Shown here piece after piece: positions 4,601 to 40,496 of a stretch of DNA of 64,000 nt. The number at the start of each line of letters is the position of its first letter. The stretch's first letter is position 1. Position numbers and translations under genes: made by a program. The notes below the pieces were generated by a model. That model was not told where the DNA came from, did not search any database, and saw only the letters and a program-made list of their open reading frames with translations. Origin of the DNA: Escherichia coli (GTDB lineage: Bacteria; Pseudomonadota; Gammaproteobacteria; Enterobacterales; Enterobacteriaceae). The stretch lies in the NCBI RefSeq assembly GCF_003019035.1, contig NZ_CP027448.1; one strand, written 5' to 3'.

Positions 4601-7422
4601 AATGGCCCCTTCAGTCGTTCCTTTTTACCATCAATCATTTTTTTCACAGCCTCTCCTGATGGCTCAGGTATTATCTTTTGACTTTCTCGCTCTTCATTAT
4701 ATTTATTATTCTGAGATAATGCTTCTGTTTTATGGTGATTCTGCAGTTCAGAATACTGTCCTCTTACAATATTTTCCTCGCCATGTATGCTGTTCTGAGT
4801 ATCACCTATATTCCCTTTATATTCTGTGACCATATTATCAACCTGATGTTTTACATCATTACGGATATTACTGTCCTGTGTTCTTTGATCAATAATGGCC
4901 TGATGCCCCTGATGGTCAGCAATAATATTCTGGCTGCCACCACCCGAAGGTACGCTCTCCATTCCTTTACCAATATCGCCACGGGATTCACGCCAGGCAT
5001 TATCAACACCAGGTTGTACCTGTTCTTGCACAAAAGACCATGCCATCGCCCGACGGCGTTCTGCAATCTCCGGTGAACTGGTGTTTGTCAGAATAGCTTC
5101 TGCATACTGCGGCGCGTGTTTCATCACATACTGTGCAAACTGTTGCGACAGGTCTTCACTCATCTGCCCACTCATGCTTTCAGTACGGGATGCCATTTCA
5201 GCATATTCATGGCTGCGGGTCATATTCGTCGTGTACTGGTCGTAACTCTGTTTCGCTGAGTTCAGGGCTGCAGACAACTGGTCCACGCGGGAATCGGCAT
5301 TATTGTCAGTATGGCTTCCGGATTCACTGACTTTGCGACTGGTAAAGTAATCGCTGGCCTCTTTAAAGTCCTTACTGGCTCTAGCGTCAATATCATGGCG
5401 AGCATCATGGGAAGCCCTGCTGCCACTACTGGCTTCATGTGAGTCCAGATCACTACCGTCAATACTGGCTCGCCCACCAACCTTAGCGCCAACATCAACA
5501 CGCACACCAAAAAGGCTGGGCTTTGCATCTAATCCGGCATGAGCATCACCATACAATCCAGCTGATGCAGTCGTACTTCTCGATGCCAGTTCTCTTGTCG
5601 CCTGCTCATTACTGATATTATGCGCCTTCGCATAGCTTTCCACTGCACTGCGCATACGGCTGGCCATCATGGAGTCCTGAGCACTCATCGTGCTGTCAGC
5701 ACCACCGGTGACAGAATCACTGCTCCCCCGGTTAGAACCAAACTGACTGAGCGTGTTCCAGGCACTGGCAATACTGCTGCTGAACCCATGCAGGGCACTT
5801 TCTGCTCTGTTCGATGCTTCCCGGGCCATTTCCTGTTGTGCCGCCGCAATCTGACGCGTTGCATTGATGCCGACCGGTAACCGGGACATCGCTCCGCTTG
5901 CATCCATCACCATATTACCATCACGGGTCTGTGTGGCGGTTGCGCCACTGCCGGTCTGGTACATCATCTGACCAAACGACGTGGTGCTGTTGGTGCTCCA
6001 GCTGAAGCCGTTCACGTTCTCCGTCTGCATGTTGCCGTAGGAGTAATTACCGTCAACCACACTGCCTGCTGCACTGGCGGTCGGGCTGATAGCAGAGGAA
6101 GCGAAATGGCTGTACACACTGGAAAATCCTGCCCCGAGCCCCCTGACCATCATCCAGGATAATGGCGGGATCATCATGGAAAGATACCCGGCAGTGGAAG
6201 CCAGATCGGAGTATTTCAGCTGTATCTGTGAAATTTCCGAGAGCACCACCGGTGCACCATTCTGCTTCGCATAAAATGTCATGGCGCTGTTCAGAATGGC
6301 GTACAACATTGGCCATGACTGCAACCACATCAGGGCAAACACATAGCCTTTCAGGACGGACAGCGTCAGTTTGTTGAAGACAGCCGCCAGTACCAGGAGC
6401 GGGAAAATACCGATGGCGATCCCCGTCAGGATGGTCTGCGTCATGGGCAGTGTCCGCATCGCCACATGACCGATGGAGACATGTGCCAGACGTTGCTTCT
6501 CCATCGATGATGTGGTGGCCAGATTCACCAGGCTGGCCGAATCACCATTACGTGCGGCATAACTGGTGATCCCCTCCTTCAGCGCATTGATGGTGACATT
6601 CTGGCGGATGATCTGGCTGGCTGATTTACTTGAGCCATAGAAGTAACTGTAACTGTCGCCAATCAGCGTACTGAACAACAGGTTCGGATCAGGGCGTCCA
6701 CCAAATAGCTGCTGGGCATAATAATGCCATGTTTTTCCGCCACTCTGTGTGTCCAGATTCAGCTTGTCTTTCAGCGAAACCGACGCGTCCTTACAGGTCA
6801 CGAAATTATTATTGCTGTCATAAACGCCCCGCAGCGGACTGGGGCGGGAAAAAATCAGCGTGTAAGGATCAGCGGAGGCCATCAGTTCCTCCAGCGTGTA
6901 TTTGTGGTTCAGGTAAATATCCCCCATCACGCAGTTCTGCACATAATCCTGGAAAAGATTGGCGATTTCCGGATTACGGGACAAAAAGTCGGTGCTTTTT
7001 GATACCAGTTCTGCGCCAAACAGCATCCCCGTTTTGCTGTAGGTGACACTGTCCGGTTGCGTGAAGATCATCTCGTAACTGGCCACCATTGCATGCCCGA
7101 TACGGGTCGTCAGTGAAAGTGGCATCGCCAGTCCGACCGGCACATTATCCACCCGGTGAATTTTGACCAGGTCACTGTTATCAATAATCTGCACCGATGT
7201 GCGGACATTAACCAGCAGGCTGATAAGCACAAACACGGCCACCCAGCCCAGCAAATCCATCACGTTGTGCCGCTGTACCCACATTACGGCCACCGCTAGA
7301 ACAGACAATGTGAGCGCAATTTTTTCAATGGAATCCCACGTCCGGGTCCCCATAAAGGCGGCAATGGCATTCAGGTTATTCCGCAACCACTCACCACCGG
7401 CAATCACATAAACTTCATTCAC
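4597..7422 (-). CDS. traG: Mating pair stabilisation / pilus assembly protein TraG
   Basis: 941-aa ORF with N-terminal polytopic membrane region; size and synteny match F TraG. Confidence 0.93.
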   Translation of the reverse strand: MNEVYVIAGGEWLRNNLNAIAAFMGTRTWDSIEKIALTLSVLAVAVMWVQRHNVMDLLGWVAVFVLISLLVNVRTSVQIIDNSDLVKIHRVDNVPVGLAMPLSLTTRIGHAMVASYEMIFTQPDSVTYSKTGMLFGAELVSKSTDFLSRNPEIANLFQDYVQNCVMGDIYLNHKYTLEELMASADPYTLIFSRPSPLRGVYDSNNNFVTCKDASVSLKDKLNLDTQSGGKTWHYYAQQLFGGRPDPNLLFSTLIGDSYSYFYGSSKSASQIIRQNVTINALKEGITSYAARNGDSASLVNLATTSSMEKQRLAHVSIGHVAMRTLPMTQTILTGIAIGIFPLLVLAAVFNKLTLSVLKGYVFALMWLQSWPMLYAILNSAMTFYAKQNGAPVVLSEISQIQLKYSDLASTAGYLSMMIPPLSWMMVRGLGAGFSSVYSHFASSAISPTASAAGSVVDGNYSYGNMQTENVNGFSWSTNSTTSFGQMMYQTGSGATATQTRDGNMVMDASGAMSRLPVGINATRQIAAAQQEMAREASNRAESALHGFSSSIASAWNTLSQFGSNRGSSDSVTGGADSTMSAQDSMMASRMRSAVESYAKAHNISNEQATRELASRSTTASAGLYGDAHAGLDAKPSLFGVRVDVGAKVGGRASIDGSDLDSHEASSGSRASHDARHDIDARASKDFKEASDYFTSRKVSESGSHTDNNADSRVDQLSAALNSAKQSYDQYTTNMTRSHEYAEMASRTESMSGQMSEDLSQQFAQYVMKHAPQYAEAILTNTSSPEIAERRRAMAWSFVQEQVQPGVDNAWRESRGDIGKGMESVPSGGGSQNIIADHQGHQAIIDQRTQDSNIRNDVKHQVDNMVTEYKGNIGDTQNSIHGEENIVRGQYSELQNHHKTEALSQNNKYNEERESQKIIPEPSGEAVKKMIDGKKERLKGPL

Positions 7423-24936: not shown

Positions 24937-25623
24937 TTATTTAACACCATAAAATTCACGAATTATACTTAATAGCGAATCTATTTCTCCTTTATATATA
25001 CATGACACTCTGAATAAATCAAAGTGTTCAAAAAACTCTTTTATTTTCCGTTTAACTGGTTTAATTCGATCCTCAGATGCTCTGTCTGTAATACCCAATT
25101 CTCTGGCAATTGTTGCGTGACCAACACCCAGCATATAAAAAGAGAAAACAACCAATGTTCCTGGAGAAAGATCATTCCATATCGTTAATTGACCAGAAGT
25201 ATTTGTATTACTTACACTCTGATTTAACGCAAAAAATGGATAATCAGGAAACGGATTAATTTGCCATAAAACAACAGATTCGTCATTATAAAAAGAAACA
25301 TTCTCCATCCTTATCTGATAGATTTCGCCATGAAAATTAAAACGACGACAAAATGCAGAGCCATGTCCAAGAGCCTGGCATTCCAGTTCAAGTGATGAAA
25401 GAAAAATTTCAACCTGCAGACGTATATAACTCTCTCCGGATAAAGGTTTATCTTCTCTGGAAAAGAGTTCAATAAAAGCCCCATTGGCATAAAGGATTTT
25501 CCGGTTTTTGTTACGGACACAAACCGGAACGGGAGAATTTCTGTAGATATTCTGAACGTTAAGGATGTATTTATTTACAGATTGACTGTTTAGTGGCCTT
25601 TCTCTACGATCCAGCGCACACAT
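24937..25623 (-). CDS. traJ: TraJ transfer activator (start set to MCALDRR..., 228 aa)
   Basis: ORF 24937-25701; ATG 25623 has GGAGG 5 nt upstream; position between traM and traY. Sequence is not the F allele as I recall it. Confidence 0.75.
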
Positions 25624-25692
25624 AGGAACCTCCAGTAAGGATTCTATGGACAGTCGATGCAGGGAGTTACAGCTCCCTGCATCGGCGATTTT
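25618..25692 (+). ncRNA. finP: FinP antisense RNA (candidate), complementary to traJ RBS/start
   Basis: Plus strand opposite traJ leader shows imperfect stem-loop (25622-25648) then perfect hairpin GATGCAGGGAG-TTAC-AGCTCCCTGCATC (25656-25683) followed by T-rich tract: terminator-like, as expected for FinP. Ends approximate. Confidence 0.55.
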
Positions 25693-25812
25693 CAGTTTCA
25701 ATTTTTAACGTGGTATTAACCACATAATTAATATACTAATTATCTGACGTATTGTCATCTTTTTGAATCATAAAAATTCTTATATTTGAACCAACTCAAA
25801 CTTCATTTTCAT

Positions 25813-26196: not shown

Positions 26197-26610
26197 AAGA
26201 CAGTACCTTTTAGATTCTGAAATAAGAGTTTTATTTCATCTACTCATAGTATGGTCTGAAAAAATAAGAGCACCCCTAGCAGCGCCCCTAGGGGCATACT
26301 ATAAAAAAACGCACGGCGCTGCTAGGGGCGGCCCTAATATATCCAAATGTTTTTCATGAAAATTGTCAAAACTGACCCTAACAAGGGTCGTCATAGGGTC
26401 GTTATAGGGTCGTCAACGACCCTATTTAATAATGTAAAATAAATTAAAATACATTATTTAGAACATAAACTAATGATTTAAAAAACAAATCAGCAAAAAC
26501 TTGTTTTTGCGTGGGGTGTGGTGCTTTTGGTGGTGAGAATCACCAACCTGTTGAGCCTTTTTGTGGAGTTGGTTAAATTATTTACGGATAAAGTCACCAG
26601 AGGTGGAAAA
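26197..26610 (+). promoter_or_regulatory. oriT: oriT region; nic predicted between 26519 and 26520 on the plus strand
   Basis: Sequence TTTGCGTGGGGTGT/GGTGCTTTTGGTGGTGAGAATCACC matches remembered F nic region; lies between traM and orf169; direct/inverted repeats at 26280-26340 and 26385-26425 are candidate TraM/TraY/IHF sites. Confidence 0.85.
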
Positions 26611-27530: not shown

Positions 27531-28319
27531 TCACCCCGATAATCCACCTTTTATCATATTCTCCTGAACCCGCTGCCAGGTTGTCCAGAGATCGTTCTGT
27601 TTGTCTTCCCGACGACGGGGAGTAATTATCTGTTCAGGTGTCACTGGCGTTTTATTTTCATCTTCATACCTGACCATCAGTGCAGCTCTGCCAAATAAAT
27701 GTTGCTCGTCACTGTTAAGATGAATTTCTTTCATCGCCTCCATATTATCAGTGACCTTATCAAAGACACCGAGCACTTCATACGCTCCCTCGATAACCTG
27801 CCCGACAATATCACCTTTATGTGGAACGCGGATTTCGCCAAAATTATTTCCGCACACCAGGCCATTTGTGCAGACAAAACGAAAAATTCCGGGGATCATC
27901 TGATAACTGGATGAACCATCATGTGAATTAAGCAGGATAATTTCAGGAGCTTCCTGTCCGTTAATATGCCCTTCCCTGCGAAGACGTAACATATGTTTAC
28001 TGTATTCGCGACGTCCCAAATCACGAACCCGACTCTGACAGGCAAAGAATGGCTGGAAACCTTCATCACGTAACTTATTGATGATATTGATTGTTGGAAT
28101 ATACGTATAACGTTCACTCCGGGACTCATGTTTATCACCGGAAAATACCGAAGGCACGAACTGCATTAATTCATCATCCGTTAAAGGACGTTCACGGCGG
28201 ATGGAATTATACCGACCAAAACGGGAAGCTAATCGCATAACAGCTACTCCTTTATGAAAGAATAAATTTAATAAAAAATTTTTCCGCTTAATATCATCCC
28301 CCCTGATCTCCATTAACAA
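27531..28319 (-). CDS. DUF932-family leading-region protein
   Basis: 262-aa ORF; family assignment from memory of conserved IncF leading-region proteins; not verified. Confidence 0.7.
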   Translation of the reverse strand: MLMEIRGDDIKRKNFLLNLFFHKGVAVMRLASRFGRYNSIRRERPLTDDELMQFVPSVFSGDKHESRSERYTYIPTINIINKLRDEGFQPFFACQSRVRDLGRREYSKHMLRLRREGHINGQEAPEIILLNSHDGSSSYQMIPGIFRFVCTNGLVCGNNFGEIRVPHKGDIVGQVIEGAYEVLGVFDKVTDNMEAMKEIHLNSDEQHLFGRAALMVRYEDENKTPVTPEQIITPRRREDKQNDLWTTWQRVQENMIKGGLSG

Positions 28320-28356: not shown

Positions 28357-28644
28357 TCAGCAGATCGCCCGGATATCGAGGCCGGCACGCTTAATCTGAC
28401 GCAGGAACTGTTTGAAGTGATCGGCTTCCGCAATGTTGATATGGCGGAACTGCTTATCCACACCCTGACTGAGCGCGTAGCTATAACTGAAGGCCATCTT
28501 TTCCGGGTGGCTTTTGCGATATTTTTTCAGCTCAGTCAGGCTGCTGAATTCCAGGACGTCCCACTCTTCCCTGGTGTTTTTTTTCTTCCCGGCAACAAGA
28601 AGCGTGTACGACGCGGTGTTAACGTGGATATTTCGGGTACTCAT
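28357..28644 (-). CDS. DUF905-family small protein (YkfF-like)
   Basis: 95-aa ORF, GAGGAGA RBS upstream of ATG 28644; immediately downstream of repeat copy 1. Confidence 0.65.
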   Translation of the reverse strand: MSTRNIHVNTASYTLLVAGKKKNTREEWDVLEFSSLTELKKYRKSHPEKMAFSYSYALSQGVDKQFRHINIAEADHFKQFLRQIKRAGLDIRAIC

Positions 28645-28666
28645 CCTGCTTTCTCCTCTCTCTGGT

Positions 28667-29314
28667 TTTCAGCCCCCATCATCTTTTGAGTTTCGGGAGC
28701 CGCGGTTTTGACGTTTTGCGGGGACCTGCCTTTTGTTCCCTCCGGTATTCACCATCACCTTTTTGAGAACCTTCGCCGCAAGGGGCATCACTGCCACGGA
28801 CGGAAACGACTGTCCGGGGGCAGACCGCAAAAGTTTTTGCCTGCTTTTGAGCAAAAAGTTTTGCGGGATGTACATTTCACCCCTGGACTGGCGGAGACGG
28901 TTGTGGCTGTATCAGCCCCCGGCGACAGGGGCTTAAACAGGTGAATGGCACCGGACAGAACAACGGGCAGGGACCCGCCGCAACGACGTGAAGCGCGGTT
29001 TGCGAAACGGCGTTGCCCCTTACATCCCGGCGGCCTTTTGCCGGGATGCCGGGAGCGCAGGCCACGGCGCGACAGAGGCGGCGCGACCGGAACGGTCGCT
29101 GCAAGCCCGGGGTTTTCACGCATCGGACCGTAGCGACAGCCCGAAACCGCGCCAGCGGGTTCGGCGGAGACTGGCAGGTGCGCCAGCAGCTGCCTGTCGG
29201 AGTCGGGCCTGACGACCGGATGCCGCCAAGCAGCCGGGAGCCGAAGGTGCGCCCGGCAGATAGGACAACACTGCAGTAGTCAGAATCAGAGCAGAAAGAA
29301 AAAGAGAATAATCA
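28667..29314 (+). repeat. Structured ~0.63-kb leading-region repeat, copy 1 (Frpo/ssi-like candidate single-strand promoter)
   Basis: Near-identical to 34087-34720 and 37421-38033; contains hairpins (28825-28866; CATCCCGGC...GCCGGGATG); ends about 20 bp upstream of the DUF905 start. Confidence 0.75.
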
Positions 29315-29565
29315 CAGGGAAGGTGATGTGATTTCTGACAGGCCATAACCAGAGAAGGCGGGGGAAAAGAACGGGCGCCGCAGGCGCGCGTTCATCCCCG
29401 TTCCTGAAGGGAAACGACCTTCCTGAAGTCAGGTTGTTCATGCCCGTACAACATCAGCAAGGAGAAAGGGGCTACCGGCGAACCAGCAGCCCCTTTATAA
29501 AGGCGCTTCAGTAGTCAGACCAGCATCAGTCCTGAAAAGGCGGGCCTGCGCCCGCCTCCAGGTTG

Positions 29566-29724
29566 CTACTTACCGGATTCGTAAGCCATGAAAGCCGCCA
29601 CCTCCCTGTGTCCGTCTCTGTAACGAATCTCGCACAGCGATTTTCGTGTCAGATAAGTGAATATCAACAGTGTGAGACACACGATCAACACACACCAGAC
29701 AAGGGAACTTCGTGGTAGTTTCAT
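29566..29724 (-). CDS. hok: Hok-family toxin (52 aa), flmA/hok
   Basis: Reverse-complement translates [52 protein letters not shown], the Hok sequence as I recall it; below the 60-aa cutoff so absent from ORF track. Confidence 0.9.
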
Positions 29725-29782
29725 GGCCTTCTTCTCCTTGCGCAAAGCGCGGTAAGAGGCTATCCTGATGTGGACTAGACAT
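29570..29782 (-). CDS. mok: Mok (modulator of killing) overlapping reading frame
   Basis: 70-aa ORF overlapping hok in another frame, the known hok/mok arrangement. Confidence 0.65.
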
Positions 29783-29825
29783 AGGGATGCCTCGTGGTGG
29801 TTAATGAAAATTAACTTACTACGGG
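29758..29825 (+). ncRNA. sok: Sok antisense RNA (candidate)
   Basis: Plus strand opposite mok 5' end, contains hairpin GTTAAT-GAAA-ATTAAC; ends approximate. Confidence 0.45.
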
Positions 29826-30003
29826 GCTATCTTCTTTCTGCCACACAACACGGCAACAAACCACCTTCACGTCATGAGGCAGAAAGCCTCAAGCGCCGGG
29901 CACATCATAGCCCATATACCTGCACGCTGACCACACTCACTTTCCCTGAAAATAATCCGCTCATTCAGACCGTTCACGGGAAATCCGTGTGATTGTTGCC
30001 GCA

Positions 30004-30723
30004 TCACGCTGCCTCCCGGAGTTTGTTCGGCACCATCCACCGCTCCATCTCACGGACAGCGTGACCGGCCTCTCTTGCTGCAAGACTGGCTTCCGCAATA
30101 ACCTGCCAGAACGGCATATCCTGCCACTGCCAGCGTTCCATTCCGGCCAGTGACGGAAAACGCTCGCCCCACTGCCAGAACAGGGTTTCCAGGTCATGCT
30201 CTGCCACCCGGTCACTCCAGCGTGCATGCCAGCTTCCGACTGTTTCCGGCGAATGGAATGCCAGTTCGATTTCAGCCTGAGCGACCAGCGCCTGGTACGC
30301 ACGGGCTTTCTGCTCTGCCTCCCTCGCCTGCTGGCGGCTGTACTTCTGCATGACCAGCGCGGATTTATGGCGACTGCGTTCCCTGACACGAAACCGCACC
30401 GACGGGAACAAGCGCTCTGCTGCATCACCGGGAAGGGGAAGGAGGCAGACCTCGCCCTGTGTTTCAATCAGCACATCGATGGCATACAGCCACTGAAGAC
30501 GGTTGCCGTGCAGTTCTTCTGCGGTCAGGGACGGCATGAAAAATCGCAGGTCAGACAGCGATATCCTGCGGCTTCCGTTCAGACAGCGGAAAAACGCCCC
30601 CGCATACGGATATTCAGCCAGCGTGTTACCCTGATGGCGGCGTTTTTCGGTCTCCGCCACCGCCCGCCATACGGCCTGTTGCTCTGTGCTGAGGGGAACC
30701 AGTGCCTGTGAACGTGCGCTCAT
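30004..30723 (-). CDS. psiA: PsiA (plasmid SOS inhibition protein A)
   Basis: 239 aa; 4-nt overlap with psiB; synteny ssb..psiB-psiA. Confidence 0.88.
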
Positions 30724-31157
30724 GCCTGACCTCCTTCCGCCATCAGGATATGGATGATGTCACTGACGCTGTACCCCTGCGCGTCCAGTGACGCCGCCAG
30801 TGCCAGTGAATGGCTGACGGCTTCCGGTGCAAACCGCCGCTGTACCTGAACCACCGCAAACGGCTCACCACCGGCATTCACCAGAACCAGCACCCAGACC
30901 TGAGAGACATCGCCCGGTGAACATAACGCCAGGTGAAAACGTTCGTGGGCAGGCGTGAAACGGACCTGGACGGGGAAAAATCCGCCAAACTCGCTGCCGT
31001 ACTCGCCGTTCATCGTCCAGTTGTCCGGCGCATCCAGCTCCCGCATCACGGCGTGTGTCAGCTCACGGCGTTCATCACTTCCGGCAGCCCGGATATCTTC
31101 ATATTCCTGTGTGTTCATGGTCTGTAATACATTCAGGGTCAGTTCAGTTTTCATCAC
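30720..31157 (-). CDS. psiB: PsiB (anti-SOS, RecA inhibitor)
   Basis: 145 aa [47 protein letters not shown]...; matches remembered PsiB. Confidence 0.9.
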
Positions 31158-31208: not shown

Positions 31209-33167
31209 TCAGGCGGCATCAGCCAGGTTATCGGTGCGTTCAGTGGCATCCGTCTGTGGGCGTGGTGCACACATCCAGCCAGGCACCCAGCGGTTGTCTT
31301 TCATATGGTGCTCTGCATGTTCAGCCGCATCGCCTTTCTTCATCTTCTCCGCGTCCCGTGCAGCACCGGACAGTCCTGCCTCATTCAGGGCTGCGATAAT
31401 CTGCGGCTTTTTCAGGTGTCCGAAGAAGTTTGCTTTTGTCGGCTGCCACCAGTCGCGCATGTGAAAGCCGATGGCGCTTTCCAGCGAATCCAGCGGACTG
31501 CGTGACGTGTGACCATACTCACGGGTCTGAACACCGTGGATGCTGCATGCAGTGCAGAAACTGAGCAGGGACAACAGAACCTCCTGGCTGAGTGACAGGA
31601 ACGTCGTCATATCCCGTGCCCATCCCTCCGGTAACAGGGCTGCAAGACGGGCTTTTTCTGCCATCATCGCCATGAATGCGGCACCGTCCTTCCCCGATGG
31701 CGCATCGCTGGTCAGCGCATAATGCTCACATTCCAGACGAATTTTTGCGGGATTGCTGTACGCCCCGCTACCAAACACATTCAGGCAGAGCGTCCATGCC
31801 AGCAGTGCCAGGGATTTGTCCGGCTGTTGCATAAGCGCCGCCTGGACTGCCAGCGTGCGCTCTGAGGACATTTTCGTCAGCAGTGGCAGACTGATTTCCT
31901 CCACGGAGGCTTTCTCCTGCACCTGTTCCGTGTGGTCAGCGTCGTCAGCCACATCATCCTCACTGCGTAACTGCACACCACGCTGGACACATACGTTTCC
32001 ATAACGCCAGGACACCACCACGCCACTTCCGGCACGCATCTCCGGCGTCCACGCCCTGACCTTCGCCATGCAGTCAATCAGCTTCATTTCTGCTTCCAGC
32101 AGGTCGGATTCCTCACACTGGTTTTCCAGCGCATCGTAACGTGCCATCAGTTCGTTCAGGCGTTCTTCTTCTGCCTCCGTCAGCACCGCTTCCGGCTCCG
32201 GCAGACTGCGGTATGTTCCGGCATCCTCACGGCACTCACCAACGGCCTCCATGCGTCCGGCACACCATCCCCAGCCCTCGGCTTCCCGAAGGTGTTCAGC
32301 AACAGCCTGGAGTTTTTCCAGCAGGGCAGCATCGAGCGCAACACAGTCCACATAGCCACCCTCGTCGTCGCTGAACAAATCGGTGCGCAGTTCATCTGGC
32401 GAGAAGGCATCAGCCCCCACAAAGCGGAATTTAGTGTTCCCCACCACCGCCACTTCACTTTCGGTCACCAGACGACGAATGGTCTGTACTCCCGGTTTTC
32501 CGCCCCATCCCGACTGACAGGCAGCTTCAAACACCTGCACCTGACGCGCGGTGTCGTTCTCCAGCGCCAGCGCCTGACAGTGCTCTGTGGTGATGCGGTC
32601 TTCTGCCAGCGCATCGAGGATGACAGGCGCAAGGTCTGCCAGTTTCAGCATTCGCTGAACGTGGCGGGGTGAATAGCCCAGCAAATCACCGATTTGTGCA
32701 GGCGTTTTGCCTTCCTGCGCCATTGCACGGAATCCGGCAATCTGTTCGGCAGGGTGCATATCCCGACGATGACCGTTTTCAGTCATTGATGCGGCAGTCG
32801 CCAGTTCCTGCGGAATAACCTTCACGCGGACAGGCCAGTCAGCAGGAAGGATGTTGCGCTCTGCCAGCATGTTGAGTGCTGCCAGTCGGCGACCGCCTGC
32901 GGCGACACCGTAACGGTCACCTGGCAGGGCATGAACAACCAGATTCTGCAGCAGGCCGACGCCCTTAATGGACTCTGCCAGTTCGCTGACGGACTCCGCA
33001 GAATACGGCACCGTGCGCACATTCAGCGGTGACTTAATCAGCGAGGCCAGCGGCACGCTCACTTCAGCCGTCTCCGCCAGCAGGGCCGACAGGACTGTTT
33101 CCTGCGTTTTTGCAGGTTTACGGCTGGATTTACGCTCCGTTTTTACCTTAGACTCTGTAACTGACAT
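31209..33167 (-). CDS. ParB/Srx-domain (ParB-like nuclease) leading-region protein, 652 aa
   Basis: N-terminal ParB-like motif ...LVVHALPGDRYGVAAGGRRLAAL...; start set at ATG 33167 with AAGGAG RBS (ORF track begins 33263). Confidence 0.78.
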   Translation of the reverse strand: MSVTESKVKTERKSSRKPAKTQETVLSALLAETAEVSVPLASLIKSPLNVRTVPYSAESVSELAESIKGVGLLQNLVVHALPGDRYGVAAGGRRLAALNMLAERNILPADWPVRVKVIPQELATAASMTENGHRRDMHPAEQIAGFRAMAQEGKTPAQIGDLLGYSPRHVQRMLKLADLAPVILDALAEDRITTEHCQALALENDTARQVQVFEAACQSGWGGKPGVQTIRRLVTESEVAVVGNTKFRFVGADAFSPDELRTDLFSDDEGGYVDCVALDAALLEKLQAVAEHLREAEGWGWCAGRMEAVGECREDAGTYRSLPEPEAVLTEAEEERLNELMARYDALENQCEESDLLEAEMKLIDCMAKVRAWTPEMRAGSGVVVSWRYGNVCVQRGVQLRSEDDVADDADHTEQVQEKASVEEISLPLLTKMSSERTLAVQAALMQQPDKSLALLAWTLCLNVFGSGAYSNPAKIRLECEHYALTSDAPSGKDGAAFMAMMAEKARLAALLPEGWARDMTTFLSLSQEVLLSLLSFCTACSIHGVQTREYGHTSRSPLDSLESAIGFHMRDWWQPTKANFFGHLKKPQIIAALNEAGLSGAARDAEKMKKGDAAEHAEHHMKDNRWVPGWMCAPRPQTDATERTDNLADAA

Positions 33168-33231
33168 ATATTTCTCCTTTGACCGGGGTGGTTGTATGTC
33201 TGCCGGACGTGATCCCCGTCCGGCACCTCTC

Positions 33232-34720
<1,489 letters not shown>

Positions 34721-34929
34721 GAAAAAGAAGAACAGTAGCAGTAGCAGTAGCAGGAACAACAACATCAGTAACAGACAAATGACAGGCATGAAGAAACAGA
34801 AGCCCCCATCAGAACGTCCGCGTAATGAAAGGGGCGGCGCGTGAGCGCGGCCCCTTTCAGCGCCACCGGCGCGCGGTCTTTTCCCGGCGCGGGCAGACGG
34901 GCATTTATCCTCCCGCCTGCCCGGCGTCT

Positions 34930-35493
34930 TCAGGCACGCAGACGAATAATCATCGTCGGGACATCGGTATAAGCAAACGTGCCGCGCGGCAGCTCCTCGC
35001 GGACGTCAGAAAACGGTAACAGCTTCTCCTGCTGGCGTGGTCCGTTGAGACAGACGGCGACCAGCACGCCACCCGGACGCAACAGGGAAAAGGCCCGCAG
35101 GATATGCCGGATATCCTGCCCGTGGCTGAACGGCGGATTCATGATAACCCGGCTGTAATACTGCGCCGGCTGCCATTCCATGAAGTCGCCACACTGAACC
35201 CTGACACCGTTAAAATTTTCCCGCAGATACCGGACCAGCCCGCTGTTGATTTCCACCGCATCACACATGGCCCCCGGCGCGGTATCCCGAATCGCCCGCA
35301 GTATGGCCCCGGTGCCGGCAGAGGGTTCCAGAATGTGATCACGGTTGCTGATCTCCGCCAGCATCACCAGGCGATCACAGACCGGGGCAGGAGTCACAAA
35401 AAGCTGAGATTCAGCCCGGATTTCAGCAACCGGCGCGGCGTTATCCAGCCTTGCGCGCATCAGCCGGATACGTTCTCTTAACTGACTGTGCAT
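34930..35493 (-). CDS. Small SAM-dependent DNA methyltransferase-like protein (NPPF motif), orphan
   Basis: 187 aa with motif I-like EPSAGTGAIL and motif IV NPPF; no adjacent restriction enzyme. Confidence 0.7.
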   Translation of the reverse strand: MHSQLRERIRLMRARLDNAAPVAEIRAESQLFVTPAPVCDRLVMLAEISNRDHILEPSAGTGAILRAIRDTAPGAMCDAVEINSGLVRYLRENFNGVRVQCGDFMEWQPAQYYSRVIMNPPFSHGQDIRHILRAFSLLRPGGVLVAVCLNGPRQQEKLLPFSDVREELPRGTFAYTDVPTMIIRLRA

Positions 35494-35540: not shown

Positions 35541-36902
35541 TTATTTCTGTGGAATTTCCGTGATTTTCATGTCGGTGATATACACATTCACCAGGCGGAA
35601 ATTATTGTCCATTGTGCGGCGGTAGCGGTATGCCCCGTGGTCTTCTGCTTCTGCCACACTGCGCACGGCCTTACAGTCCCGGGGCAGGGCGGCCCACTGT
35701 GCCTTTGTCATTTCCCGGAAACCTTCCCCCGGATAGTTGACTACCGGCGGACGCTTCGCGGCCTGACTGGCGACGGCAGCCTCTTCTGCCGATGGTGCTT
35801 TGTAGTCCGTGATGCGATCGGGCGTCACTTTCATCGTGCCGCTGTACCCGAGAAAACTGTAATTTGGCGTTGTGACTGAACTCACCACCCCGTTGCTTTT
35901 GTTCACACGGATGATGGTCAGCCACTCGCCCCGGCTGAAAACCTGTCCGCCCGGCTCAAAATCCTGTGTCCGGGTAACCACGCCGCCGCTTTCGTCCAGC
36001 ATGGCACGCTCATAGATCAGGCGGTTCTGATAGTGGTTAACCCAGCGTTGCTGACGCTGGATCTGCCGTTCATGACAGCGGATCGCAATTTCGCGGGCCT
36101 GCTCCGTGGTGATGATGTCATCATCCAGGGCCGACCATAACGATCGACTTCCTTCATACTGGCTTTTTTCTGCCGGGCGCGGATACGTATCCAGCGGGAA
36201 ACAGGCGCTAATATGGTCATGACTGCTGATGAGTTTTGCCATATTCAGATCCAGCGATTCAGCCCGCCACATCGTCAGATATTTCTGCGACTGTGCGATG
36301 GTCTTTTCAGCCTTGCGCAAATCAGCTTCGATTTTTTTGATACGACGCCAGCGAACGTCCGGACGTTCTTTATACTTCGCGTGAAGCAGTGCCGACCGCG
36401 CGCGTTCTTCCCAGTATTCCGCACGTTCAAAGAGCATCACGGCACGTTTCATGCCGTTTTCAATACGCTGCGCATCACGACGGGCGCGGCGTTCGCTGTG
36501 ATGCCCCACAAGAATGGGCTGACCGGGCGGGATCATCGCGGCCAGTCTTTCCACTTCATCAAGTGCCTGTGCGGATTCACTGGCCCGCTTTCCGCTGTAT
36601 CCGGTAAACCGCTCCGCCCGTGCTTCCTGACGTTCAGCGAGCGTGCTGTCTTCATCCTCAATCTCTCCGGCAAGTGAGAGGAGCACGTCTTCCCGGCCCG
36701 GTGTCCAGGCTGGCGCGACAAACAGCGCCTGTTTGGGTGCCCAGCGAAAACCGGCATCATGCACTTTTTTATACGTCTCCGGGTCGAGGCGTGACGCGGC
36801 ATACAGGCGCAGTTTGTTGTCATCCGGTGAGTAGGTCGCGCGGTACATCTGCACAGGGCTGGCGGCTTCCGGGGCGGTCATGGTGATGGCTGCTAATGTC
36901 AT
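35541..36902 (-). CDS. Conserved leading-region protein (DUF3560-like, 453 aa)
   Basis: Long ORF, charged/helical middle region; family name from memory, unverified. Confidence 0.6.
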   Translation of the reverse strand: MTLAAITMTAPEAASPVQMYRATYSPDDNKLRLYAASRLDPETYKKVHDAGFRWAPKQALFVAPAWTPGREDVLLSLAGEIEDEDSTLAERQEARAERFTGYSGKRASESAQALDEVERLAAMIPPGQPILVGHHSERRARRDAQRIENGMKRAVMLFERAEYWEERARSALLHAKYKERPDVRWRRIKKIEADLRKAEKTIAQSQKYLTMWRAESLDLNMAKLISSHDHISACFPLDTYPRPAEKSQYEGSRSLWSALDDDIITTEQAREIAIRCHERQIQRQQRWVNHYQNRLIYERAMLDESGGVVTRTQDFEPGGQVFSRGEWLTIIRVNKSNGVVSSVTTPNYSFLGYSGTMKVTPDRITDYKAPSAEEAAVASQAAKRPPVVNYPGEGFREMTKAQWAALPRDCKAVRSVAEAEDHGAYRYRRTMDNNFRLVNVYITDMKITEIPQK

Positions 36903-36953: not shown

Positions 36954-37184
36954 TCAGTTAAAAGCGCGTTTCAGTTCGAGTGTGCGGAGCACCTGCCCGA
37001 AGGCCGTGTTTTTCATGGCGGGGATGTGTACACCACGCCCCCGGTGAAAACTCCGGGCTATGTGTCGCCCGAAGGCTTTCAGCACGGGGTCAATTTCCGG
37101 CGCGGGGATGTCTTCGCGTCTGAAACGGGGATGACGGCGGGGCTTTACAGCCGCTGCGGAAGGTGAAACAATACTTACCGTCAT
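36954..37184 (-). CDS. Small basic hypothetical protein (76 aa)
   Basis: AAGGAG RBS 8 nt upstream of ATG 37184; first ORF downstream of repeat copy 3. Confidence 0.45.
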   Translation of the reverse strand: MTVSIVSPSAAAVKPRRHPRFRREDIPAPEIDPVLKAFGRHIARSFHRGRGVHIPAMKNTAFGQVLRTLELKRAFN

Positions 37185-37420
37185 AAATGAAACTCCTTAT
37201 GACTGTTGAATGGAACCGCAGAAACTGCTCGAACAGTTTTTGCGGTGTGGATTAAGCAGGTCCTCCCCGGCCTGCTTTTTTCATATCTGCGTCTGACGTT
37301 CTCCGGTGTTTTCCTCCTTCTGTTCCTGCGTTCTCATTACCTGCCAGCCGGATGACTGACAGAACAAATAAATGCGTATTGCCGGAGCCTGAAATAAATC
37401 CTGATTTTTAAAGAACATCA

Positions 37421-38033
37421 CCCGTTGAGTTTCGGGAGCCGCGGTTTTGACGTTTCGCGGGAACCTGCTGCTGTATTCCCTGTGGTATGAACTTCACCCG
37501 TTTGAGAACCTTCGCCGCAAGGGGCATCACTGCCACGGCCTGACGCACCTGTCCTGGGCAGAACGCAAAATTTTTTACCGGGTTTGGGGTAAAAAATTTT
37601 GTGGGCTGTTCATTTACCCTGGACAGTCAGTGCGGCAGGTTGTGGCTGTATCAGCCCCCGGCGACAGGGACTCATACGGGTGTGTGGCACCCGGCAGGCA
37701 ATGAGCAGGGACCCGCCGCAACGACGGAGAGCGCGTGCGCGAAACGGCGTTGCCCCTTACATCCCGGCGGCCTTTTGCCGGGATGCCAGGAGCGCAGGCC
37801 ACGGCGCGACAGAGGCGGCGCGACCGGAACGGTCGCTGCAAGCCAGGGGGTTTCACGCATCGGACCGTAGCGGCAGCCCGAAACCGCGCCAGCGGGTTCG
37901 GCGGAGACTGGCAGGTGCGCCAGCAGCTGCCTGTCGGAGTCGGGCCTGACGACCGGATGCCGCCAGGCAGCCGGGAGCCGAAGGTGCGCCCGGCAGACAG
38001 AACAACACTGCAGTAGTCAGAATCAGAGCAGCA
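37421..38033 (+). repeat. Structured leading-region repeat, copy 3 (Frpo/ssi-like), diverged 5' part
   Basis: 3' two-thirds nearly identical to copies 1 and 2; 5' part diverged but hairpin retained with compensatory changes (37563-37603). Confidence 0.75.
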
Positions 38034-38224
38034 GATAAAGGAACAACAACAACATCAGGAACAGTTCCACAACATAAGAAAGAAACACTCCTGAGTCAGA
38101 CACATCACAGACGGGAAGGGTAACGGGCGACGCGCCAGCGTGGCCCGCTTCCCTTCCGGCAGGCGTCAGCCTGCCAGGGGTTTTCGCGCGGGCTGACAGG
38201 CGGCCTCCACCGCCTGCCCCTGTA

Positions 38225-38881: not shown

Positions 38882-39307
38882 TCAGTCCAGTGCCGCGTAA
38901 ATCGCGTTACATTCGGGGTGAAATTCGATGTGGCTCCACAACTGCGCATCGCGCATCCTGTACAGGTGAGTCAGTCCTGCATCACCGCTGTCGTGGTACA
39001 GCCACAACTGACGGTTAATCACAAGGGAAGTCACAATGATGCCTGCGGCATCGGCGCTGACCGTACGGTCAAACCAGTTTTCACCGTTCACCATGTGGAA
39101 ACGGTCGCCATCCGGCATCATGTAACCGCCACCGTCCGGCAGGCGGATGAAGTGCCAGAATCCGCCTTCATATTCCGGCATCATTTTTTTCGCCAGCGCG
39201 TACACAGATGCCTCGGCATACAGAAAATCATTGCCAAACAGATACAGCAGAAAGGAGAGACGGTCGCATTCTTCAACATTCAGAGTGACAGGTTTCGCAT
39301 ACTGCAT
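38882..39307 (-). CDS. ardB: ArdB/KlcA-family anti-restriction protein (141 aa)
   Basis: ...[21 protein letters not shown]...[23 protein letters not shown]... matches remembered ArdB/KlcA pattern; start at ATG 39307 with GGAGG RBS (track ORF begins 39487). Confidence 0.78.
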
Positions 39308-39719
39308 GGGATTTCCTCCGTTGTTCACATATTCCGCGACACCGGGCGGTGCCGTGCCTCCATAAAAGCCGGGCGATAAGGCGGGGATGCACAGGGCGCA
39401 AGGGAAGCCGCAGCCTGACGCACACGGCTGACGGGAGTTGGAGGGGGAGACCGCGAAATCTGAGCGGGTGAACGACCGGAAAATCACGGCAGACGGGAAG
39501 GAGGGACCGGGTGACCGCAGCGTTCATTTTACCCTTGCATCCCCGCCAGCCCGGCTAAGATGGAGGCACGGCACAGCCCGCACACGACACGGTGGCCACA
39601 TAACTGAAAACCCACAAGGCCATGCCTGCATGGCCGGGTAAAGCGGAGCCGGCGGCGACTTCCTTTGTGCTCTGTCCGGGGACCGGCAGAAAAAAAAGCG
39701 GGGATTTTCCCCGCCATCA

Positions 39720-40496
39720 TCAGCCCCTGATTTTTGCCAGGGCATCCGCCATGCTGCGGATTTCGGCCCGGGCTTCCCGGACAACTTCCCGCAGAACACC
39801 ACGGTCAAACCTCTGGCGGGGCGGTTCATCCGGTATACGCAGCACATCGCAGGCCAGCCCACTGGACAGGATATGTTCAATACAATCGCTGACCAGATAC
39901 ATTTCCACCGCCGAAAAACGTGCGCCCCGGTTCAGGATGGCATCGAGCACCACGGGCAGGTTTTCGTCGTCCTCATCGAGCCAGCAGGGGTGATCGCTTT
40001 CCTTCACGACCAGGCGAAAGCGGCGCGTCTGGCGGGTCAGTAACGTCTGACCAGTGGTGGTCAGCGCCGCCCGGATACGCCGCGTATCTTCTGCCACCCG
40101 GCAACTGACACTGCGTACCGCATCGCGCACCGCCGCAAGTACAGCCCTGATTTCGTCTTCGGTCAGCCATTCACCGGCATACGGAAAAGACACCTGCGTT
40201 CCGTCTGCCGGAAGTACCGGCAGCGACTGCCACTGACTGCCGGACAGTACAAGTTCCTCCCCGGTTCCGGTCAGTTTGTGAATGGCGGAGGCCAGGAGCG
40301 GCGGCAGTACGCCGCCGTGACGGTTTATAAGTAACGTCGCCAGCTGGGGCGCATCCAGCCGCACGTAAATGCTGATCCAACCCGGATAGTTCGGGTTTCG
40401 CTGGTCAACATCAGTCTCTTCCGGCCAGCCCTGCGCCAGCAGCAGGTCGCGGGCGTGACGACAAATCAGTGCATTCAGCGTTGTGTTTTCGTTCAT
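39720..40496 (-). CDS. Hypothetical leading-region protein (258 aa), function unknown
   Basis: Uninterrupted ORF in operon context; no family recognised. Confidence 0.55.

Follow-up and report, generated by a model that had tools for sequence, protein, structure and literature searches.

The Frpo element of plasmid F was reportedly described in 1997 as a single-stranded-DNA promoter, its promoter mechanism is said to have been established by the same work, and three such elements, ssi1-3 of ColIb-P9, were reportedly described in 1999 and 2004. In the literature on F and on ColIb-P9/pESBL, transcription and priming by RNA polymerase at these elements are specific for ssDNA and stimulated by SSB, and downstream expression is early (zygotic). 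The promoter mechanism is established for F (Couturier et al., 2023; Fraikin et al., 2026): Frpo drives early expression of leading genes in vivo (Couturier et al., 2023) and, under the names ssp1a/ssp1b, primes complementary-strand synthesis (Fraikin et al., 2026). Frpo elements have been catalogued across thousands of conjugative elements (Samuel et al., 2024) and assigned to the "class 1" ssDNA promoters (Wen et al., 2025). The class 2 and 3 leading-region hairpins (ssp2/"Frpo3"), the minus-strand origin of filamentous phages and ssoA of rolling-circle plasmids have no sequence homology to Frpo; like Frpo, they are ssDNA fold-backs that mimic a sigma-70 promoter and are inactivated in the duplex. 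The element, its fold and its function are thus already known, and thousands of sequenced plasmids carry Frpo. Here we describe three copies in one window (the whole 64,000-nucleotide stretch of Escherichia coli DNA that was analysed, from contig NZ_CP027448.1), starting from an earlier note on a hairpin within them.

Three Frpo elements in an IncF leading region

The window is an IncF conjugative plasmid (Table 1). Its F-type nic motif, GGTGT/GGTGCTTT, is on the + strand, which is therefore the transferred (T) strand, and the leading region is all of the window above 26.5 kb, that is, at higher coordinates than nic. Three direct repeats of about 640 bp are found there, their Frpo elements lying 2.2-11.5 kb 3' of nic. 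The genes downstream of each repeat are typical leading-region genes, all on the - strand, and the + strand is their template. The hairpin segments are in register inside the repeats, and so the earlier note was right to treat them as homologous; the arm sequences and coordinates that it quoted are also correct.

The three repeats are copies of the Frpo/ssiD class-1 single-stranded-DNA promoter, in which the hairpin caps a stem-loop of about 320 nt at its apex. The Frpo/ssiD element makes up the left ~350 nt of each repeat. Compared over about 355 nt with reference sequences (Samuel et al., 2024, Supplementary file 4; F plasmid, NC_002483), copy 1 is 96.6% identical to F Frpo1 and 95.7% to ssiD (D90178), copy 2 is 95.8% identical to F Frpo1, and copy 3 is 92.4% identical to F Frpo2. 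The element occurs in at least 5000 PLSDB plasmids, mostly conjugative plasmids of Escherichia, Klebsiella, and Salmonella.

The likeness to Frpo1 and Frpo2 of F (92-97% nucleotide identity) extends to the leading-region position, the strand, the long stem-loop and the downstream genes, ygeA/DUF932 and ssb-psiB-psiA. However, F has two Frpo copies and the window three; the operon headed by the extra one (DUF3560 and methyltransferase) is missing from F at this location. Upstream of ssb, the apex is of the Frpo1 type (G·G) here and of the T-A type in F. ColIb-P9 (IncI1) resembles the window in having three dispersed leading-region copies (ssi1-3, also Frpo1-3). Its upper stem is homologous to that of the window (~78% identical over ~115 nt), whereas the lower stem cannot be aligned. 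Its apex design is the one seen here, with a G·G-centred type in ssi1 and T-type variants in ssi2/3; in the latter the mismatch is T·T and lies near the loop, not at the centre.

Rfam covariance models at the gathering threshold matched UptR, traJ_5, FinP, AS-pc01, sok, and AS-traG in the window, and none of the matches overlaps the repeats or the hairpin. A scan of the element with the linear sigma-70 consensus gave no canonical site. An intrinsic terminator was considered for the hairpin of copy 1 and rejected: a terminator scan of 28600-29400 gave no site at 28825-28866, and the stem is rich in A/T and is itself part of a larger one.

Beyond the Frpo stem-loop, each repeat continues for about 300 nt. 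These extensions are 97% identical between copies, against 67-95% for the Frpo part, and fold moderately (z -4.0). They contain a small hairpin, CATCCCGGCGGCCTTTTGCCGGGATG, to which a small hairpin in ColIb ssi is related, and a motif, GACCGGAACGGTCGC, that is present also in Salmonella Frpo* sequences. Above copy 3, a GC-rich fold-back region matches F plasmid 7279-7388 and lies just upstream, in the sense of the - strand, of an antirestriction gene; a class 2 ssDNA promoter and replication roadblock (ssp2, "Frpo3") has been described separately at this position.

Table 1. Positions of the features discussed in the text
Feature	Position	Strand	Basis or detail
traJ 5'UTR/FinP	25617-25725		Rfam match
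oriT nic motif GGTGT/GGTGCTTT	26515-26527	+	exact + strand match
DUF932 gene (ygeA-like), downstream of copy 1	27531-28319	-	
95-aa ORF, downstream of copy 1	28357-28644	-	
Repeat copy 1 (Frpo1 position)	28665-29302	+	
Long imperfect stem-loop of copy 1 (Frpo/ssi class 1), predicted for the T-strand	28690-29008	+	DNA MFE, covariation
Candidate promoter boxes, 5' arm	28762-28791	+	TTGAGA (28763-28768), 17-nt spacer, CATCAC in the mismatched bubble
Apical hairpin, copy 1	28825-28866	+	8 pairs, G·G mismatch (28833/28858), 7 pairs, 10-nt loop
Candidate promoter boxes, 3' arm	28883-28915	+	TGGACT, 20-nt spacer, TATCAG opposite the same bubble
Repeat extension, copy 1	29003-29302		
sok of the hok/sok system, between copies 1 and 2	29722-29898	-	Rfam match
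psiA, downstream of copy 2	30004-30723	-	
psiB, downstream of copy 2	30720-31157	-	
ParB-like gene, downstream of copy 2	31209-33263	-	
ssb, downstream of copy 2	33527-34105	-	
Repeat copy 2	34088-34725	+	
Apical hairpin, copy 2	34248-34289	+	same G·G mismatch (34256/34281) and one extra closing C-G pair
Repeat extension, copy 2	34426-34725		
Methyltransferase gene, downstream of copy 3	34930-35493	-	
DUF3560 gene, downstream of copy 3	35541-36902	-	
76-aa ORF, downstream of copy 3	36954-37184	-	
AS-pc01 (antisense RNA of pHK01), just below copy 3	37179-37280	+	Rfam match
Repeat copy 3	37404-38039	+	
Apical hairpin, copy 3	37564-37603	+	16 contiguous pairs including one G·T; 8-nt loop
Repeat extension, copy 3	37740-38039		
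Antirestriction gene	38882-39487	-	
GC-rich fold-back region	39673-39783		match to F plasmid

Pairing, covariation and the strand under selection

When the + strand is folded as DNA, the hairpin forms the tip of the long stem-loop (-94.6 kcal/mol for copy 1, 321 nt folded). Going down from the tip, there are an asymmetric loop, a conserved helix (TGTCCGGGG/CCCCTGGAC), a strongly covarying helix, a conserved mismatched bubble (CATCAC opposite TATCAG) and a long lower stem. Regions of about 650 nt fold with z-scores of -9.6 (copy 1) and -10.8. The + strand apices alone have folding energies of -16.1 (copy 1; z -5.2), -18.2 (copy 2; z -6.1), and -13.0 kcal/mol (copy 3; z -5.1), a stability that none of 200 shuffles reached in any of the three. 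The apex of copy 3 is less stable than those of copies 1 and 2 although it is fully paired.

A column-by-column comparison shows six stem positions that differ between copies 1/2 and copy 3. According to the earlier note, the two arms had changed concordantly so that pairing was kept. This is true of one pair, where G-C is replaced by A-T (TTTTTGC/GCAAAAA in copies 1/2, TTTTTAC/GTAAAAA in copy 3). At the centre of the hairpin, pairing is gained rather than kept: copies 1/2 have a G·G mismatch, overlooked in the note, at which AAAAGTTTTT and AAAAAGTTTT are non-complementary, and copy 3 has a T-A pair. The remaining two changes leave copy 3 with a weaker stem base, G-C having become G·T and C-G having become A·G. 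Two or more concordant Watson-Crick pairs arose from six random stem substitutions in about 0.6% of simulations, so the concordance is more than chance.

The concordance is nevertheless one old allelic difference common to many plasmids, because F Frpo2 has arms identical to those of copy 3, the loop alone differing. The Frpo1-type allele is centred on G·G, and the Frpo2-type allele is paired throughout (T-A/A-T). Apex alleles are exchanged among Frpo copies. What separates copies 1/2 from copy 3 is a difference between two old alleles, not the outcome of co-evolution within this plasmid. T-type apices are found on lower stems of the copy-1/2 type too. Such mosaic elements, with a copy-3-type apex (L051:5054-5398, L028:189-533, and others in the stem-loop alignment described below), imply recombination or gene conversion between Frpo copies.

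Covariation was studied in about 157 copies, drawn from 19 PLSDB plasmid regions, published sequences and one metagenome DNA-pattern scan. A PsiB alignment search of species-representative genomes gave only four loci, too few to use, and was replaced by this sampling. The metagenome scan was anchored on a conserved 5'-arm block, TTTGAGARCC(N)TTCGCCGC, which lies outside the apex; for finding apices, a search anchored on the conserved 5'-arm block took the place of a noisier anchor-regex search. Near-identical E. coli-type psiB contigs (L002, L003, L005) are filed under Oscillibacter, Streptomyces, and Chryseobacterium, probably through assembly contamination. Two alignments were made, one of the apex (A3, 28 distinct variants) and one of the whole stem-loop (A4, 115 distinct sequences).

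In the apex alignment, 90.2% of cells are paired, against 42-65% with slid partners, and both sides have changed in 7 of the 17 pairs. The number of both-sides-changed cells is 26 (5.6 ± 1.9 in shuffles). Here and in the whole stem-loop, the counts are of cells and not of independent events, which are few, the alleles being common to many plasmids of joint ancestry. The covariation score was reached by none of 500 shuffles. Variable pairs include G-C/A-T at columns 17-32 and G-C/G·T/A-T/C-G at columns 5-44. In the whole stem-loop, 86.5% of cells are paired, against 42-48% when slid, 42 pairs have changed on both sides, and again none of 500 shuffles reached the observed score. MAFFT misaligns the CCCCTG-GAC/CCCTGGAC columns in this alignment, making helix 7 (74% paired) and the A·C counts there artefactual. 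Tested on many homologues, the main contention of the earlier note, selection on single-strand secondary structure and not on coding, is supported.

As an alternative, the inverted repeat might be a palindrome recognized in duplex form, as an operator for a dimeric protein, or a by-product of gene conversion between repeats without selection on pairing. Inverted repeats are typical of operators, and apex alleles are shuffled between copies (T-type apices on copy-1/2-type lower stems), so that the two concordant changes of the window count as one inherited event. However, operators conserve bases, whereas here unrelated hairpins replace apex modules with pairing kept, and a covarying stem of about 150 bp carries the hairpin at its tip. 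Pairs have also changed independently in other lineages (G-C/G·T/A-T at columns 5-44; G·G/G-C/T-A/A·A at the centre), and the strand asymmetry of wobble pairs described next is unexpected for duplex recognition. Together these points make either version highly improbable.

The earlier note had left the selected molecule as ssDNA or RNA. A G·T pair on the + strand is a C·A mismatch on the other strand or in mRNA. On the + strand, G·T exceeds A·C by 21 cells to 4 in the apex alignment and by about 780 to 270 in the whole hairpin, the latter counted in the well-aligned part only, with the misaligned columns left out. Two G·T pairs, at 28798/28902 and 28799/28901, are near-invariant, and the apex is 1.5-3.5 kcal/mol more stable on the + than on the - strand. 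The excess of G·T, some three to five to one, argues for selection of the fold in the transferred DNA strand rather than in RNA of mRNA sense, which narrows the alternative to transferred ssDNA. That the hairpin is the Frpo apex and is selected as an ssDNA structure is, taken jointly, very probable.

By the same evidence, it is very unlikely that the hairpin is selected as RNA in the 5' leaders of the early transcripts, where it might, for instance, affect stability or the control of translation. With promoter boxes at TTGAGA-17-CATCAC, the apex would be part of the transcript and its complement could fold as an RNA hairpin; folded as DNA, the - strand still gives -11.5 to -14.7 kcal/mol. However, the favored G·T pairs (21:4 in the apex, about 3:1 in the whole hairpin), including the two near-invariant ones, would be C·A in RNA of mRNA sense, the G·G mismatch would be C·C, and the hairpin coincides with no Rfam family.

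A modular apex and two placements of the promoter boxes

At least five unrelated apical hairpin modules are carried on the same conserved flanks (TGTCCGGGG/CCCCTGGAC) and lower stem. They are an A4-5 G T4-5 type with central G·G; a fully paired A4T6/A6T4 type (copy 3 and F Frpo2), of which ColIb-P9 ssi2/3 have the T·T variant; a long Klebsiella/Serratia apex; a type with the arms GGCGACAT...ATGTCGCC; and a short GC hairpin without an A/T tract. One metagenome contig (L034:4-348) has an otherwise normal Frpo1-type element from which the whole apical hairpin is absent, TGTCC-GGGG being joined straight to ATGTACATTT; either a natural deletion or a faulty assembly at the inverted repeat may account for the absence. 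With the short GC type, it indicates that the particular A/T hairpin is not indispensable.

The centre of the apex is unpaired in 18 of the A3 variants (G·G, A·A, and the A·G of F Frpo1), T-A in 8 and G-C in 2. Counted by copies, it is G·G in 26, A·A in 5 (a diverged variant), T-A in 50, and G-C in 4. A purine·purine mismatch at the centre of an A/T helix that is otherwise perfect also recurs in sequence-diverged apices (L026, L118, L027, and Salmonella Frpo*5/7). We did not find the modular apex, the + strand wobble bias or the recurrent central mismatch described in the Frpo literature consulted. We suggest tentatively, as a possibility with the odds against it, that the apex is a swappable module whose recurrent mismatch may itself be functional. 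If so, the mismatch might be a kink or weak point that tunes promoter strength or the melting of the hairpin by UvrD or the replisome, or it might suppress cruciform extrusion or deletion in the duplex plasmid. Operons headed by different apex alleles (G·G, G-C, T-A, short GC) would then differ in their kinetics of expression or conversion.

The -35 and -10 positions are not printed in Couturier et al. (2023), Samuel et al. (2024) or its preprint, Wen et al. (2025), Fraikin et al. (2026), or a 2020 review. Two candidate placements can be made (Table 1), with the apex upstream of -35 in one and within the transcribed part in the other. In the 5' arm, TTGAGA-17-(C/T)ATCAC is the best sigma-70 match, and its spacing is constant. 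The 3'-arm candidate, TGGAC(N)-20/23-TATCAG, better fits the class-2 analogy and a truncated Frpo2 fragment that worked in a construct (Samuel et al., 2024). All apex types, those of ColIb-P9 included, keep the CCCTGGAC/GTCCGGGG helix. The conclusion that the structure is one of ssDNA is independent of the placement.

On another reading, the A/T-rich apical helix does not serve as a structural cap alone and is also a sequence-specific UP-like element. Its 3' arm, AAAAA(G/A)TTTT, would be contacted by the alpha C-terminal domains of RNA polymerase upstream of a -35 at CCCTGGAC, a sequence conserved across all the apex types. Four of the five types keep the A-run of the 3' arm and the T-run of the 5' arm despite otherwise differing sequences, and an A+T-rich UP element upstream of -35 has been described in Frpo structures (Samuel et al., 2024). 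However, several plasmids have the short GC apex in otherwise intact elements, and the A-run is separated from TGGAC by about 19 nt and an unpaired 13-nt loop. TGGAC lies 20 nt (copy 1) or 23 nt (copy 3) from the bubble, a spacing that suits a sigma-70 promoter poorly, and the alternative TTGAGA-17-CATCAC would put the apex downstream of the start site. We consider a UP-like role doubtful, though it is compatible with selection of the apex as an ssDNA structure.

Proposed mechanism and meaning for plasmid establishment

In the mechanism we propose, which extends to this plasmid what is established for F, the + strand, nicked at about 26520, would enter the recipient with its 5' end first during conjugation. 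The three ~320-nt elements on it would then each fold back into a long imperfect stem-loop that mimics duplex promoter DNA, from which the sigma-70 RNA polymerase of the host would transcribe genes towards oriT before the complementary strand is made. The genes served would be the DUF932/ygeA-like gene; ssb, psiB, and psiA; and the DUF3560 and methyltransferase genes. The RNA made from the element could also prime complementary-strand synthesis. The A/T-rich apical hairpin of 16-17 bp would be the structure selected in the transferred DNA strand. As a fast-folding local hairpin, we infer, it would nucleate and close the long stem in competition with SSB; taken on its own, such a nucleation or cap role seems to us about an even call. 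Its A/T tract may additionally act like a UP element.

The comparison adds nothing new on the existence of Frpo. What it adds is that the fold appears to be selected on the transferred strand, and that a conserved lower stem is combined with an interchangeable apex. Frpo-type promoters set the time at which an incoming resistance plasmid first expresses genes. The early functions that they drive, SOS inhibition, SSB, anti-restriction, and methylation, bear on plasmid establishment and the evasion of host defences, and the modular apex gives simple, testable variants with which ssDNA promoters can be dissected.
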